Translations under genes and position numbers: made by a program
Shown here: one piece after another, positions 3,215-35,825 of the stretch
Position numbering within the stretch: position 1 is the first letter of the stretch
Layout of the letters: every line of letters starts with the position of its first letter
Assembly: GCA_017501545.1 (NCBI GenBank)
Contig: JAFVWS010000044.1
Span: 10,240-74,239 of the forward strand
Length of the DNA stretch: 64,000 nt
Direction of reading: 5' to 3'
From: Clostridia bacterium
GTDB taxonomy: Bacteria > Bacillota > Clostridia > Oscillospirales > CAG-272
The notes under the pieces: model-generated
The model's input: only the letters and a program-made list of their open reading frames with translations
The model's database searches: none
What the model was told of the DNA's origin: nothing

Positions 3215-3331
3215 AGTAAACTCCTTAAGAATTATTATTTGTATTAACATTATATCAAATAATGCGCGTTTTGTCAATTCGCTTCACAAAAAGTTAAATT
3301 TTACAAGCGGGAAATAAAGGGTGCACCGAAA

Positions 3332-3696
3332 GCGTGTTATCCTTAACGGAAAACTTGAAAGCTCTTTCAAATCTTGTTGAGAGCCAGCATCACATTTGTA
3401 TACACAATTCAGTTGGGCAGAAGCCCAAGCAACCCCACTAACAACAGAAAAGAGAAGATTCGTTTTTAAGCGAGTATTCCTTTCCCTTTGTCTGTTAAGT
3501 GATATGCTGACTAAAGCCAGCGTGATATTTTCGCTTTGCGAAAGTGATATTGAAGCCTTATGGCTTCAGTGATATTCTTTTCGCCATAAACTTGCGAAGC
3601 AAATATCACTCGGCACAAGCCGAATAACACTGCGTAGCAATATAGTTCGCCGTGTGCGAATAGAACTGGCGTGATACTCCGTTAAGAGTATCACGC
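3332..3696 (+). repeat. 'Comb' repeat element copy 1 (core AGTGATAT(T)/(A)ATATCACT), MITE/REP-like
   Basis: Four forward and several inverted core words separated by mini-hairpins. Ends in the perfect hairpin GCGTGATACTC-CGTTAA-GAGTATCACGC (3669-3696). The left end 3332-3350 is a 16/19 inverted match to it. Confidence 0.8.
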
Positions 3697-3722
3697 CGAA
3701 CGCACCCTGTGTTTATTTTGGT

Positions 3723-5771
3723 TTATTTTACCTCGTTTGGCTTAACCTTTGATGCAAGCTGGGCTGGAACCTCCTCGTATCTTACGAAGTGGAACGTAAA
3801 GTTTCCTCTGCCCTGTGTCATTGCACGAAGAGCGATAACGTAGTCTGTCATCTCAGATTTAGGAACCTCAGCCTCAACAATTGAATACTTAGGACGCTTT
3901 GCATCTGGCTCCATACCAAGCACACGGCCACGACGCTTGTTAAGGTCGCCCATTACGTCGCCAACCATAGACTCAGGCACGGAAACCTTAAGCGTTCCAA
4001 TTGGCTCAAGCAAAACTGGTCCTGCCGCAGTTAATTCCTTATATGCAAGGCGTGCAGCAAGCTTAAACGAAAGCTCGTTTGAGTCAACGTCGTGGTATGA
4101 GCCACCAGTTAAATCGGCACCAAGGTTAACCATAGGATAACCAAGAAGCACGCCACTTTCCATGGCTTCTACCAAGCCCTTTTCAACAGCTGGGAAGTAA
4201 TTCTTTGGAACCTCACCACCAACAACGCTTGTTGTAAACGTAAGTCCCTCGTTGTCCTCGCAGTGTGAGAATGTAATTTTAACGTGTCCGTATTGACCAG
4301 CACCACCGGATTGCTTCTTGTGCTTGCCCTCTACGCTGATTGTCTTTTTAATTGTTTCTCTGTATGCAATCTTAGGCTGAACAAGTGAAATTGATACACC
4401 ATATCTGTTCTTTAGCTTGCAAACAACGGTATCAAGGTGAACGTCACCAATACCCTTAAGAAGCAATTCTCCAGTTTCAACAAAGTTTTCATACTTAACG
4501 GTCTTATCCTCGTCAAGCACCTTTGCAATTGCGTTAGCAACCTTGTCCTCGTCCTTGCCGTCGGTCTTGATTGCCATGGTCATATTTGCCTCTGGGAATT
4601 CGATTTTTGCGTACTCTGTGTCTGATTTTTCGCATAGAGTGTCACAAGTATTAGTGTTAGTAAGCTTAGCGATAACACCGATATCACCACAAGCAAGTGA
4701 GTCAACCTCGGTTTGCTTTTTACCACAGATTGTGTAAATCTTAGAAAACTTTTCGCTTGCTCCCGTGGAAACGTTTTTAAGAACCATATCCTTCTTTAAT
4801 TCGCCATTCATAACCTTGAAGAAGGAGAAGCGACCTACAAATGGGTCTGAAATTGTTTTGAATACAAACAGCCTGCACTCACCCTCGCGCTCGATTGCAA
4901 CGTCGTTGCCATTTACGTCCTTCTCAACCTTTTTGGCTGTGTGACGTGGGAAGGATTGTGAAATTGAGGAAAGAATTGAGTAAATACCTCTCATGCTCTC
5001 TGATGAGCCACACCATACTGGAACGATAGAGCCAGTAATCATACCCTCGTGAAGCGCGTTTGCACACTCATCCTCGCTAAATCTCTCGCCCTCGAAGAAC
5101 TTTTCAAGCATTTCCTCGTTGGTTTGTGCGCAAGCCTCCATAAATATCTCTTGGTATTTTTCAGCTATTTCAAGACGAGATGGGGTCATTTCCTCCTCTT
5201 GTCTTTCACCGTTAGGAAGATAACGGAAGCACTTCATTGTCTTTAAATCAACCATCATTGTACCATTAGGCTCCTTGATAGGAATGAAAACAGGACAAAG
5301 CGCGTTTCCAAATTCCTCTCTTAGCTGGTTGAATACTCTGTCAAAGTCAGCATCTGGGTCGTCACATTTATTAATAAAGAAGGCTCTTGGAAGTCCTGCC
5401 TCAAGGGCGTTATACCAGCCTATTTCAGTGCCAACCTCCAAGCCTGATTTAGCATCGATATTGATTAGCGCTGCATCAGCAACTCTAAGTGCGCTTGCAA
5501 CCTCGCCTGCAAAGCCAAGAAAGCCAGGACAGTCAATAAGGTTAATCTTACAGCCCTGCCACTCAAGGTTAACGACGGACAAGCCTATTGAAATACCTCT
5601 TTTGATTTCCTCTTGGTCGTAGTCAGAAACTGTGTTACCGTCGCAAATTCTACCTAAGCGGTCAGTTGCCTTAGCTCTGAATAGCATAGACTCGATAGTT
5701 GCAGTCTTACCACTTCCGCTGTGACCTATTAAGCACACGTTTCTAATTTCATTTGTTGCAAATTTTGCCAT
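3723..5771 (-). CDS. fusA: Elongation factor G paralog (EF-G2/EF-G II type)
   Basis: GHSGSGKT, EEIKRGISI, DCPGF, NKCD and KKQSGGAGQYG; 682 aa. The G-motifs deviate from canonical EF-G, so this is a paralog. Confidence 0.9.
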   Translation of the reverse strand: MAKFATNEIRNVCLIGHSGSGKTATIESMLFRAKATDRLGRICDGNTVSDYDQEEIKRGISIGLSVVNLEWQGCKINLIDCPGFLGFAGEVASALRVADAALINIDAKSGLEVGTEIGWYNALEAGLPRAFFINKCDDPDADFDRVFNQLREEFGNALCPVFIPIKEPNGTMMVDLKTMKCFRYLPNGERQEEEMTPSRLEIAEKYQEIFMEACAQTNEEMLEKFFEGERFSEDECANALHEGMITGSIVPVWCGSSESMRGIYSILSSISQSFPRHTAKKVEKDVNGNDVAIEREGECRLFVFKTISDPFVGRFSFFKVMNGELKKDMVLKNVSTGASEKFSKIYTICGKKQTEVDSLACGDIGVIAKLTNTNTCDTLCEKSDTEYAKIEFPEANMTMAIKTDGKDEDKVANAIAKVLDEDKTVKYENFVETGELLLKGIGDVHLDTVVCKLKNRYGVSISLVQPKIAYRETIKKTISVEGKHKKQSGGAGQYGHVKITFSHCEDNEGLTFTTSVVGGEVPKNYFPAVEKGLVEAMESGVLLGYPMVNLGADLTGGSYHDVDSNELSFKLAARLAYKELTAAGPVLLEPIGTLKVSVPESMVGDVMGDLNKRRGRVLGMEPDAKRPKYSIVEAEVPKSEMTDYVIALRAMTQGRGNFTFHFVRYEEVPAQLASKVKPNEVK

Positions 5772-10376: not shown

Positions 10377-10451
10377 TGGAGCTGGTGATGAGATTTGAAC
10401 TCATGACCTGCTGATTACGAATCAGCTGCACTGCCACTGTGCTACACCAGC
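10377..10451 (-). tRNA. tRNA-Thr (anticodon CGT), CCA encoded
   Basis: Cloverleaf on the minus strand: acceptor GCTGGTG/CACCAGC, D arm GCAC/GTGC, anticodon arm GCTGA-TTCGTAA-TCAGC, T arm ATGAG-TTCAAAT-CTCAT, then T-CCA. Confidence 0.96.
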
Positions 10452-10505: not shown

Positions 10506-11411
10506 ATGAATTTGTGTGATGTATCAACCGTCAAAAAAATTATGGCGCGTTTTAATACCGGTACTAAAAAGTCGTTTGGACAAAACTTTTTAATAAATCA
10601 AGAAATTCCTTATGGTATAGCAAGAGAAAGCATTTCTTACCACTCGTCAGTGCATAAGGGCAAAAAAAGCGCAGTTATTGAAATTGGTCCTGGCATTGGC
10701 TCCTTAACCAGTGAGCTTTGTCAAGTCTACGACAAGGTAATTGCCGTTGAAATTGACAAAACCTTAATTCCAGTTTTGGAATACACCCTTGGCGAGCATC
10801 AAAACGTCAAGATTATTAACGAGGACTTTTTAAAAATAGACCTTGAAGGGCTATTCAAAAAAGAGCTTGACGGCTATGAGGTTAGCGTTTGCGCAAATTT
10901 ACCTTACTATATAACGACCCCTATCATTATGGCGCTTCTTGAAAATGCAAGGCGCGAAAATGGCACCTCAAGATTTACCTCAATTACAGTTATGGTGCAA
11001 AAGGAGGTTGCCCAGCGTCTTTGCGCAACGTGCAAAAAGGGTGATTACGGCGCAATTACTGCCTCGATTAACTATTATGGCGAGGTGAAAAAGCTGTTTG
11101 ACGTCTCCCCTGACAACTTTTTGCCAGCCCCAAAGGTTACCTCAAGTGTGGTAAGGATTGAGCTTTATTCTGAGCCAAAATATAAGGTAATAGACGAAAA
11201 AATGCTATTTGACGTGATTGGTGGTGCATTTTTGCAGAGAAGAAAGACGCTTTTAAATTCACTTTCCAGTGCATTTCCTCATATTTCAAAGGAAAAAATA
11301 TCAAATATAATAGAAAATTCAGGCTTTGACGTATCAATTCGTGGCGAGAAGCTCTCAATTGAGGATTTTTGTCGCCTCAGCGATGAATTTTCAAGGGAGA
11401 ATAATAAATAA
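10506..11411 (+). CDS. rsmA: 16S rRNA m6,2A dimethyltransferase
   Basis: KKSFGQNFL, EIGPGIGSLT, ANLPYYITTPI, MVQKEVAQR and RGEKLS. Confidence 0.95.
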   Translation: MNLCDVSTVKKIMARFNTGTKKSFGQNFLINQEIPYGIARESISYHSSVHKGKKSAVIEIGPGIGSLTSELCQVYDKVIAVEIDKTLIPVLEYTLGEHQNVKIINEDFLKIDLEGLFKKELDGYEVSVCANLPYYITTPIIMALLENARRENGTSRFTSITVMVQKEVAQRLCATCKKGDYGAITASINYYGEVKKLFDVSPDNFLPAPKVTSSVVRIELYSEPKYKVIDEKMLFDVIGGAFLQRRKTLLNSLSSAFPHISKEKISNIIENSGFDVSIRGEKLSIEDFCRLSDEFSRENNK

Positions 11412-12269: not shown

Positions 12270-12590
12270 GCGTGATACTCTTAACGGAGTATCACGCAAT
12301 CAAATCCGTCTTCGACGGGTGAAATCCACCTTAGGCGGATGAAATCGCTTTCGCGATGAAATCCTGCTTCGCAGGGCTGCAACCTGACGGATTTGATTTC
12401 ATCCAAGGGCTTGACCTTGGATTTCATCTGAGCAAAGCGAAGATTTCATCGTGGTGTAACCACGATTTCATTAAACCAACAAAAAAGAGAGAACGTTTCG
12501 GATAGACCGATTTGTTCTCTCTTTCTGCTTGTGTAGGGGTTCCCCGAAACGAATGTAATGAGCTTTGGGGGTTCACGTATATGGGCTTGA
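12270..12590 (-). repeat. 'Comb' repeat element copy 2 (core GATGAAATC/GATTTCATC), left end missing
   Basis: Same 28-nt hairpin (reverse complement at 12270-12297). Shares CAAGCAGAAAGAGAGAACAAA with copy 3. Abuts the GH95 stop codon. Confidence 0.8.
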
Positions 12591-30635: not shown

Positions 30636-30689
30636 TCAGTCGTTTAAGGAAATATCCTAAAACAATAAAAAAAGACACACCGAGGCAAT

Positions 30690-31039
30690 GGGTGATGTTC
30701 TTAGCGGAGAATTTGAAAAATACCGCTAAGTGCGAGCATCGCATTTGACTAGTCAAATACTTTATGGGCTAAGCCCAAACCCATATTACAAGCAGAAAGA
30801 GAGAACAAAACGGGGTAATCCGTAATGTCCTCTCTTTTCTGTTAGTGAAGTTTTCGCTACCGCGAAAGTGAAGTTGCTATGCAGTGAAGTTTGTGCTACG
30901 CACAAGTGAAGTTAAGTTTGCCCGCTTTGCCGAAGGCAAAACTTCACTATCCGTAGGATAACTTCACTTACGTAGTAAACTTCACTTGCCCGTAAGGGCA
31001 AACTTAGTTATGCGTGATACTCCGTTAAGAGTATCACGC
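30690..31039 (+). repeat. 'Comb' repeat element copy 3 (core AGTGAAGTT/AACTTCACT)
   Basis: AGTGAAGTT at 30844, 30867, 30883 and 30905; AACTTCACT at 30940, 30960 and 30978. Identical 28-nt hairpin at 31012-31039. The left end is an 18/23 inverted match to the right end. Confidence 0.85.
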
Positions 31040-31109
31040 AAACTCGGTGTGTTTTTATTTTCCTTGAGGAAAAGCTGTCGCTGTGCGACTGATGAGAAAT
31101 CAGAAAGCA

Positions 31110-35357: not shown

Positions 35358-35569
35358 ATTAAACCTCTTTGTGATAAAATTTTAATGAAAAATCAAATAT
35401 GTGTACTGCCTTGTTATTTTATTTTACATTATAATTGTGAAAATTAAATGAATGGGGAAGAAAAAATAATTGAAAAAATAAAAAAATAATCTTGCTTTTA
35501 TTCTTAAAGTATGTTACAATGGCACATAAGAGAGCGAAAAGATAATATTTTATATATAGCTCTTATAAA

Positions 35570-35825
35570 TGCTATGATGAAGCTGGCATTTGTTCAATTT
35601 CCATTTACAGAGAGGGCGCACATAGGCTGGAAGGCGCTTAATGGACGGGCAAGGTGCATTTCCCTTCGGAGCAGATTTTCTGAAAGGATAGTAGGAAAAT
35701 TCGGGCAGTCCCGTTATAGACTAAGGAAGTAATCGCTTCTTAAGGAGCCGTTTTGACGGAATTTGGGTGGTACCGCGGACTTTTGTTCGTCCCTTGCATT
35801 TTGCAAAGGGGCGTTTTTTATTTTC
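35570..35825 (+). promoter_or_regulatory. T-box riboswitch (Phe)
   Basis: AGAGA and GGCTGGAAG in stem I, candidate TTC specifier near 35660-35670, AATTTGGGTGGTACCGCG at 35760-35777, terminator CCCTTGC...GCAAAGGGG-T tract. Lies directly upstream of pheS. Confidence 0.92.

Follow-up and report, generated by a model that had tools for sequence, protein, structure and literature searches.

A window of 64,000 nucleotides from the genome of a Clostridia bacterium (Oscillospirales; contig JAFVWS010000044.1) contains three comb-like intergenic elements, here called copies 1, 2 and 3, in which a short repeated word alternates with tiny hairpins and a 28-nt hairpin closes one end. The best explanation, to which we assign a probability of roughly 60%, is that these combs are copies of small DNA cassettes of gut Oscillospirales that sit at the tips of transcription terminators. 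The copies lack an open reading frame (ORF) and resemble miniature inverted-repeat transposable elements (MITEs). According to this explanation the word array is the cis partner of S23p/Avd-like proteins (PF05635) and acts as DNA. The genome (1.86 Mb in 49 contigs, 94% complete) and 61 related genomes were used for comparison.

The 28-mer GCGTGATACTCCGTTAAGAGTATCACGC occurs three times in the window as an exact match, on the plus strand in copies 1 and 3 and on the minus strand in copy 2, whereas none was expected from 100 dinucleotide-preserving shuffles. The identical terminal hairpin of three intergenic elements, first noticed when a model read the letters alone (the sequence-only reading), is real and beyond chance. 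Reading the regions and locating the words revealed a shared layout in which one 9-nt word is repeated in a forward block and, beyond a central hairpin, in an inverted block, with the 28-nt hairpin last. Forward and inverted word copies separated by tiny hairpins, as described in that reading, were found in all three elements. Each of their spacers forms a mini-hairpin, and the same holds for more than 97% of the 387 spacers in 98 arrays of the family, the set used for the mini-hairpin statistics below.

Copy 3 is the cleanest of the three, with AGTGAAGTT at 30844, 30867, 30883 and 30905, the inverted form AACTTCACT at 30940, 30960 and 30978, and a degenerate AACTTAGTT at 31001. In copy 1 the forward words AGTGATAT(T) start at 3498, 3521, 3543 and 3568; the inverted word at 3602 is perfect and those at 3623, 3639 and 3659 are degenerate, leaving a single perfect inverted copy. 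Degenerate words beside the 28-nt hairpin are kept across species in the class of copy 1. Copy 2, in minus orientation, holds four GATGAAATC-type and four GATTTCATC-type words, four per block. The terminal inverted repeats GCGTGATACTCTTAACGGAGTAT and GGGTGATGTTCTTAGCGGAGAAT are alike at 18 of 23 positions in a hand alignment, and a GGGTGATGTTCTTAGCGGAG motif closes the far end of most family copies. All three copies lie between protein-coding genes, and no rRNA was detected in the window.

The relation of the combs to larger elements became apparent from related genomes, which hold elements of 0.6-1.4 kb with the same two ends. Two of these (L049, 1231 bp; L092, 1427 bp) carry a PF05635 gene, and in both the whole cassette lies inside a terminator stem. 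Their order is the 28-mer, the array, a TTGACT-17-TATAAT promoter overlapping the last word, a GAGGTGA ribosome-binding site and the gene for a 118-aa PF05635 protein, followed by a tail that is conserved (GGGTATGGGCTTTGCCC...CTTTGTAATACAAAGGCGAAACTGG) and then by a cargo ORF, with the inverted end last. Four others (L130, L135, L138, L128), likewise within terminator stems, have array, promoter, tail and cargo and no PF05635 gene, and in L028 and L035 the ORF alone has been lost, with TATAAT joined to the tail. Standard combs have a hairpin CAGAAAGAGAGAAC... where promoter and ORF would sit. In copy 1 this place is taken by the hairpin module at 3445-3496, and the region 3355-3497 is collinear with the post-ORF tail GGGTATGGGCTTTGCCC... 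of L049, L092, L135 and L138; region 30713-30843 of copy 3 is likewise homologous to the post-ORF tail of full-length cassettes. These comparisons showed that the window combs are ORF-less deletion derivatives of larger cassettes. The 5' domain of the sequence-only reading consists of the tail and the far end, the latter reading GGGTGATGTTCTTAGCGGAGAAT, an imperfect inverted copy of the 28-mer end; that reading therefore draws the window copies in reverse to the gene orientation of the cassettes. Cargo genes, identified by eye from the sequences, seem unrelated to each other and include a lipoprotein-like protein with signal peptide, HAD-like, DUF559-like and small proteins. None of the longer elements with these ends encodes a recognisable transposase or recombinase. 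At locus L206 the ORF after the PF05635 gene is exonuclease-endonuclease-phosphatase-like, as judged by eye only.

Most complete copies have an A-run and a stem arm on one side and the complementary arm and a T-run on the other. The closing helix that had been described next to the terminal hairpin is present in copies 1 and 3 (Table 1) and absent from copy 2, which is truncated at that end and also misses the far terminal repeat. It had been counted as part of the element; it is instead a host terminator split by the insertion, as orthologous sites hold the intact terminator. These sites were found by protein query with the conserved EF-G-paralogue gene that adjoins copy 1. Several sister species have only a compact terminator there (e.g. 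L223, AGGGTGTTGC-ttgt-TGCAACACCCT-tttt), and in L223 and L227 a similar promoter comes after the terminator, with a next gene that, as in the present genome, also starts atgaaaaagaaa. In this genome (G000) copy 1 occupies the position between AGGGTGC and GCACCCT. Genome G070 carries another comb (word GATGAAATC) in another stem at the same intergenic site, and other word arrays occur there in two further species (L222 in G013, L224 in G065), which makes the site a hot spot for such arrays. Presence and absence as well as independent insertion into terminator tips were thereby shown between species. A DNA search with the flank of copy 3 gave no orthologues in the genus because the species are too divergent. 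With respect to neighbouring genes, 16 insertions are convergent, 7 tandem co-oriented and 6 tandem opposite, which reveals no orientation bias. The arrays of L222 and L224 show GTATGGAATC repeats in tandem units, and TGATGATATAC.

The genome contains seven exact 28-mers, two of them at contig ends. If variant end hairpins are counted there are about 17-20 elements, bounded by terminal inverted repeats, 330-430 bp long and non-coding. The proposal of a non-autonomous multi-copy mobile element is borne out by this copy number and by the presence or absence at one orthologous site, seen between species and not within one population. The statement that every copy has a different word needs correction, since word classes recur in the genome: at least seven elements each have AGTGAAGTT and GTTATGA, three have GATGAAATC, two TGAAATG, three GATGATAT and one AGTGATATT. 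What stands is that the word is uniform within an element and differs between elements. With up to three mismatches allowed, 31 of 61 related genomes contain the 28-mer, often in identical form, and these represent four other families of the order as well; rare arm changes are compensatory (e.g. GATGCTC...GAGCATC). A scan with one genome per species gave at least 120 stretches with the 28-mer, and among the matches listed (80) all were from uncultured Clostridia/Oscillospirales metagenome-assembled genomes (MAGs), several of them from ruminant hindgut or faeces. No record of the phage and plasmid collections contained the 28-mer, and viral contigs gave one match, an IMG/VR contig (L391, positions 11301-11328). 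In four gut metagenomes the summed contig depth over 30687-31039 was 20-100 times that of the flanks and contigs broke at the element, placing the repeat boundary of copy 3 at 30687-30690.

About 13% of family members have the 6-nt loop of their 28-mer in the opposite orientation with respect to the comb, and all loop variants show this (CGTTAA/TTAACG, CGATAA/TTATCG and CGCTTG/CAAGCG; loci L022, L026, L029, L030 and others). Such flips imply that the short stretch of DNA between the 11-bp arms is inverted recurrently. Elements that are otherwise near-identical can have, in place of the 28-mer, a second type of end hairpin (GCGTGTTCTCCGTTAAGGATAACACGC and its flipped form), which in this genome occurs at C14:13971, C20:18874, C4:57220, C22:33862 and C24:5252; the body of the C20 element is nearly that of copy 3. 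This interchange suggests that elements exchange modules. Nested in copy 2, on the minus strand, is a hairpin module of 46 nt (ACGTGAACCCCCAAAGCTCATTACATTCGTTTCGGGGAACCCCTAC); it occurs eight times in the genome, always inside such elements, including ones on contigs C20, C14, C25 and C18, with two copies in a single array on C18. The module looks like a smaller element carried by the combs.

The connection to PF05635 was examined through the words. The genome has three PF05635 genes, each directly preceded by a word/hairpin array, with the word AGTGAAGTT on contig C27, GTTATGA in two tandem arrays on C48 and TGATGATAT on C36. The first two are also words of ORF-less combs in the genome, and the two most abundant comb classes are the two with a cognate gene, which is suggestive only. 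Among 60 relatives, 44 have between one and seven PF05635 genes. For most of the 91 distinct proteins collected, the gene has a forward/inverted array upstream, and some have plain tandem heptamers (e.g. CGGAATT/G, GCAGAAT). When word class was mapped on the protein tree 18 changes were required, compared to a minimum of 15 for 16 classes and to a mean of 44 (minimum 39) in 300 shuffles, which shows that word class maps near-perfectly onto protein clade. Class-specific residues are mostly located in the N-terminal helix and the loop after it; in the C27 protein those of the helix are at about positions 5-11 and 22-30. Matches of the proteins include TIGR02436 and PDB 2RLD (five chains), and there was none with the PADLOC defence models; PF05635 is considered Avd-like (PMC10053308). 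Best-match spacer similarity was 0.60 between arrays with and without an ORF that share a word, close to the 0.56 between classes, with 0.70 found among ORF-less copies of one class. A shared word is also seen in arrays that differ in polarity, as on C48 where the TCA-type block comes first. The same word amid unrelated spacers and in both polarities therefore points to selection on the word by some reader, for which the adjacent, co-varying ring protein would be the obvious candidate. No description of the array-PF05635 link or of the terminator-tip cassette architecture was found in the searchable literature. A second array-plus-PF05635 class, without the 28-mer, lies directly after tRNA-gene terminators (L185, L193, L198, L201, L206, L208), and C36:1-900 in this genome is likewise an array-plus-PF05635 module after a tRNA-gene terminator.

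A full cassette thus comprises the 28-nt hairpin, an array of two inverted sets of 3-5 modules (each a 9-nt word and a mini-hairpin), a sigma-70 promoter touching the last word and often a gene for a PF05635 four-helix-bundle protein, whose structurally characterised relatives are ring pentamers. Behind these come the conserved tail, a cargo gene that varies, and an incomplete inverted copy of the end hairpin. The cassette sits at the tip of an intrinsic terminator, so that the flanking helix, A-run and T-run are the split host terminator. In the mechanism that we propose, the word is a candidate recognition site of the cognate PF05635 protein, perhaps with one word per subunit, and such recognition would explain why words are uniform within an array and different between lineages. 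The array would act as single-stranded or cruciform DNA, in which a half folds on whichever strand has its word in the TCA-type form. The end hairpin, together with its partial copy, may serve as terminal inverted repeats that are cut and joined by an enzyme that is probably host-encoded or acts in trans.

The array halves are already catalogued in Rfam as Gut-1 (RF01706). The covariance model scored 53.0 bits on the inverted half of copy 3 (30936-31010, minus strand) and 52.9 bits on the 28-mer-proximal half of copy 2 (12297-12367, plus strand), both above the gathering score of 50. On copy 1 the scores were below threshold, with 44.9 bits at 3497-3580 (plus) and 29.8 bits at 3598-3668 (minus), and a permissive Rfam search of this copy gave no family other than Gut-1. 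Genome-wide, nine matches were above the cut-off and 23 had an E-value of at most 1. Each element is composed of two Gut-1 units in inverted orientation. Both comb halves thus match a named family where the sequence-only reading could assign none; a match to a described family had been named there as what would speak against it, and this applies in part, Gut-1 being a 77-nt orphan motif. It was described in 2010 from human-gut metagenomes only, with no function proposed, and was judged a likely noncoding RNA by Weinberg et al. (PMC2864571). A full-text literature search gave nothing on the function of 'Gut-1 RNA', and no published link of Gut-1 to PF05635 or to terminators was found in the searchable literature.

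The mini-hairpins favour a DNA-level element. Their stems comprise about 1450 Watson-Crick, 8 G-T and 19 A-C pairs; G-T thus amounts to about 0.5%, is no commoner than A-C, and shows no wobble preference. GNA/GNRA loops are found on the TCA-word strand only (90 vs 0, with the complements on the other strand), and the GCGN(N)AGC mini-hairpin motif was counted 127 times on that strand, compared to two on the opposite one. C-G closes 123 of 128 GNA loops, triloops outnumber tetraloops, and stems of 2-3 bp are found in 137 of 383 cases. A third of the spacers are GCGN(N)AGC with 2-3-bp stems. Such mini-hairpins are extraordinarily stable as DNA, nuclease-resistant and poorly bound by single-stranded DNA-binding protein, whereas RNA versions are much weaker, with a melting temperature of 39 °C for r(GCGAAAGC) (PMC13037366, PMC3201870). 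Folding of whole elements gave -143.9 and -141.6 kcal/mol for the two strands with about 7.8% G-U on either, so that neither folding energy nor G-U content indicates a strand preference. The multibranch fold with paired forward and inverted words that had been put forward is not required throughout the family: the commonest class has two outer rungs that are consistently non-complementary (6.8-7.5 of 9 pairs) with a conserved mismatch pattern, and the arrays of some PF05635 relatives are plain tandem heptamers without an inverted half. That the modules can fold as a single strand and that the word is uniform within each element was borne out.

The alternative of a structured RNA ('Gut-1 RNA') made in the 3' untranslated region of the upstream gene or genes is a serious but less likely rival. 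In this explanation a compact comb fold would join the terminator arms so that termination works, or would stabilise the mRNA or titrate an RNA-binding protein. Folding energies are indeed very low (z = -8 to -14), and Rfam lists Gut-1 as a small RNA. Read-through transcription of the elements surely takes place, since the polymerase has to pass an element within a terminator before it terminates. Half of the insertions are between convergent genes, where both strands would be transcribed, which would explain the Watson-Crick-only stems. Family members also occur in metatranscriptome contigs from four runs, a point against our explanation, although these contigs carry no strand or end information and may stem from DNA carry-over. 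Against the RNA stand the symmetry of folding energy and G-U content, the scarcity of G-T pairs, the many short stems that would be weak as RNA, and the loop flips of the 28-mer, which are DNA events. Furthermore, no own promoter was seen by eye upstream of the three window copies (no promoter scan was made), and in ORF-bearing cassettes the array lies upstream of the promoter and outside the mRNA. Of the two possibilities left by the sequence-only reading, the mobile element is the better one and the structured noncoding RNA is disfavoured. A motif catalogued as RNA may really be a DNA element, and the 'covariation' of Gut-1 need not be a sign of RNA structure, since it consists of palindromes that are perfect, of loops that have flipped and of GNA mini-hairpins.

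Several results weigh against the terminator-tip cassette with a PF05635 reader. The mapping of words on protein clades could simply mean that a gene and the array beside it are inherited together. Of 73 combs, 18 share a genome with a cognate-class PF05635 gene compared to 9.1 expected (permutation, P=0.056); the count was 5 of 73 on the first pass and rose when truncated genes were classed by protein clade. For genome-class pairs it was 6 of 38 compared to 4.7 expected (P=0.28). The power of this test is lowered by incompleteness of MAGs and assembly breaks at repeats; several genomes that are at least 95% complete nevertheless have combs and no cognate gene, and many cassettes are without any PF05635 gene. 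The predicted co-occurrence of combs with a resident cognate gene is only weak, and such a gene is not clearly required. No empty-site contig for copies 1 and 3 was found in metagenomes of the same organism, where contigs break at the repeat. The element junctions (TA...TA, TTT...AAA and TTT...TTTAT) lie at the terminator dyad, where no target-site duplication could be defined. No transposase, recombinase or reverse transcriptase is linked to elements with these ends. The search for a copy adjoining an HUH/RAYT transposase or a reverse transcriptase, which had been suggested as a check, gave none: PF00078 had no match in the genome, and of three Y1/HUH (PF01797) matches two are intact RAYT-like frames of 175 and 174 aa that are not flanked by the 28-mer or arrays.

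Part of this evidence fits self-homogenising foldback DNA that has no trans-acting reader, in which template switching or mismatch correction in quasi-palindromes with shifted registers would keep the words alike and PF05635 would be a frequent passenger. The perfect palindromic stems with essentially no wobble, the repeated loop flips in every loop variant, the persistence of combs in genomes without a cognate gene and the cassettes without PF05635 are all compatible with it. Local homogenisation does not explain, however, that AGTGAAGTT and GTTATGA recur amid unrelated spacers and even in opposite polarity. The GNA loops are tied to word orientation, which indicates an oriented recognition module, and the link of arrays to PF05635 genes is tight and wide. 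We consider this explanation doubtful.

It is improbable that the elements are site-specific recombination cassettes in which the 28-mer is a recombination site, a host recombinase integrates and excises as with dif modules or integron cassettes, and solo 28-mers are landing pads or scars. The 11-6-11 geometry of the 28-mer with its extreme arm conservation across families, solo 28-mers at the tips of gene terminators (L037, L058, L017, L021), the modular cassette content and the absence of a transposase would agree with it. The resemblance to Xer/dif-type tyrosine-recombinase core sites we take to be one of geometry only. Simple integration would give direct repeats, whereas in about 85% of copies the ends, together with their central region, are mutually inverted; the far end amounts to only part of a site, and no recombinase is linked. 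A REP/REPIN-like element that is moved by a RAYT, or by an HUH (Y1) transposase of the IS200 type, working on hairpins of single-stranded DNA would fit the hairpin ends, the single-stranded DNA signature and the presence of the RAYT-like genes, but this link was rejected as very improbable since these genes are unflanked, their homologues are weakly co-distributed with the 28-mer (16 of 31 genomes with it and 7 of 30 without; within the genus 15 of 27 and 3 of 10) and absent from the near-complete genomes G012, G028, G021 and G043 that have several combs, and HUH elements to our knowledge lack terminal inverted repeats of this kind. The two RAYT-like genes (C22:13807-14304 and C18:18437-18925) contain in their coding sequence an inverted pair GTAGGGGAGGGG / CCCCTCCCCTAC about 170 nt apart, an odd case of a palindromic insertion in the gene of a hairpin-binding enzyme.

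The features of the three copies and their surroundings are listed in Table 1. Two further candidates were rejected: a conserved small ORF at the GGGTGATG end (MGDVLSGEF...), by eye, as start codon and frame vary among copies, and a plus-strand promoter upstream of copy 1, which is the reverse complement of the promoter of the adjacent minus-strand gene. The window also contains a T-box leader (35565-35797, plus strand, 98.5 bits) and a tRNA gene (10380-10451, minus strand), both ordinary and consistent with Bacillota.

Table 1. Coordinates of the three combs and adjoining features in the window
Feature	Position	Strand	Remark
Copy 1, arm AGGGTGC of split host terminator, 3' of EF-G-paralogue gene	3318-3324		pairs with 3702-3708
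Copy 1, far terminal inverted repeat, partial inverted end-hairpin copy (GCGTGTTATCCTTAACGGAAAAC)	3332-3354	+	motif class of GGGTGATGTTCTTAGCGGAG
Copy 1, conserved tail (GGGCAGAAGCCC hairpin 3415-3426) and hairpin module (3445-3496)	3355-3497		
Copy 1, forward array half, four AGTGATAT(T) words and hairpin spacers	3498-3576	+	Gut-1-like
Copy 1, inverted array half, AATATCACT, AATAACACT, AATATAGTT, AATAGAACT	3602-3667	-	Gut-1-like, minus strand
Copy 1, 28-nt terminal hairpin, 11-bp arms and 6-nt loop	3669-3696		
Copy 1, second split-terminator arm GCACCCT (3702-3708) and T-run	3702-3732		
EF-G-paralogue gene beside copy 1	3723-5771	-	
Copy 2, 28-nt terminal hairpin	12270-12297		
Copy 2, array, plus strand: AATCAAATC, GGTGAAATC, two GATGAAATC, central hairpin, four GATTTCATC-type	12298-12472	+	
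Copy 2, hairpin module (12514-12527), nested 46-nt module (12533-12578) and truncated tail	12473-12590	-	
Copy 3, arm ACACACCGAG of split terminator	30675-30684		pairs with 31043-31052
Copy 3, far terminal inverted repeat GGGTGATGTTCTTAGCGGAGAAT	30690-30712	+	18/23 with inward-read 28-mer end (hand alignment)
Copy 3, tail (GGGCTAAGCCC 30766-30776; TTTGACTAGTCAAA hairpin) and hairpin module CAGAAAGAGAGAAC... (from 30793)	30713-30843		
Copy 3, four perfect AGTGAAGTT words and hairpin spacers	30844-30913	+	
Copy 3, three perfect AACTTCACT and degenerate AACTTAGTT, GTA/GTAA-loop hairpins	30940-31009	-	
Copy 3, 28-nt terminal hairpin	31012-31039		
Copy 3, second terminator arm CTCGGTGTGT and T-run	31043-31061		

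The locus family ties the orphan motif Gut-1 to S23p/PF05635, with the hypothesis that a ring protein would recognise its cognate word on DNA, and it adds a class of cassettes, inserted at terminator tips, in which no transposase is recognisable. This bears on the shuffling of small genes in gut Clostridia and on the assembly breaks at these sites. We know of no function of the S23p/PF05635 family outside diversity-generating retroelements. A far-reaching and rather speculative extension is that Gut-1 arrays are single-stranded-DNA docking platforms read by toroidal S23p/Avd-like pentamers through a lineage-specific, evolvable 9-nt code, together forming a class of transposase-less mobile cassettes that home to the tips of DNA hairpins, terminators in the present case and rRNA helices in the case of intervening sequences. 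If true, a single system would cover Gut-1 and the S23p intervening sequences as well as thousands of PF05635/TIGR02436 genes that lack an explanation.

Bacterial MITEs and modular repeats such as Correia, BOX, RUP and ERIC, and some insertion sequences at REP or terminator hairpins, are small, multi-copy, intergenic and modular, with terminal inverted repeats and fold-back structure. The combs resemble MITEs in being small, non-coding and multi-copy, in having terminal inverted repeats and fold-back potential, and in their frequent location at gene ends. Unlike MITEs, no transposase-bearing parent was found for them; the longer relatives carry a four-helix-bundle protein and cargo, and the internal word is lineage-specific. 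A more distant analogy is with iteron, centromere or operator arrays located beside the gene of their binding protein, and with TRAP-type ring proteins that read spaced repeats. The likeness consists of identical short words beside the gene of a small oligomeric protein, with word and protein co-varying. Binding is a prediction in the present case, and the spacing is irregular (16-25 nt) with hairpin spacers, which argues against reading along one face of a duplex.

A published precedent for the protein-associated cassettes is the 23S rRNA intervening sequence of Coxiella and Leptospira. In Coxiella this selfish element has complementary ends and occupies the tip of helix 45; GACAGAT heptamers, in varying number, come before its S23p ORF, and the S23p protein forms a toroidal homopentamer (PMC4990558). 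Both systems share a hairpin-tip element with complementary ends, a PF05635/S23p gene after short tandem words, and ORF decay. A PF05635 ORF after tandem words within a hairpin-tip insertion is found in L049 and L092, and array and PF05635 also occur together at the three loci of this genome, with the window copies being without the ORF. In contrast to the intervening sequences, the host hairpin is the terminator of a protein gene and not rRNA helix 25 or 45, and the words are separated by mini-hairpins and arranged in two inverted sets. The cassettes moreover have their own promoter and cargo and exist as many ORF-less copies per genome, and excision by RNase III is not implied.

With Avd of diversity-generating retroelements (PMC10053308) the common feature is an associated protein of the same fold family (PF05635, TIGR02436, PDB 2RLD). 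The present genome differs in having no reverse transcriptase and in pairing the protein gene with a word array; a template/variable repeat pair near PF05635 genes was not noticed in the regions read, no dedicated search being made. Gut-1 itself corresponds to a comb half, with three small hairpins parted by a (G)UGAAAU-like word and an origin in uncultured gut bacteria. Here it is one half of an inverted pair within an element of 330-430 bp that has terminal repeats and a word that varies by lineage, and whereas Rfam files Gut-1 as a small RNA, the evidence from this family points to DNA.

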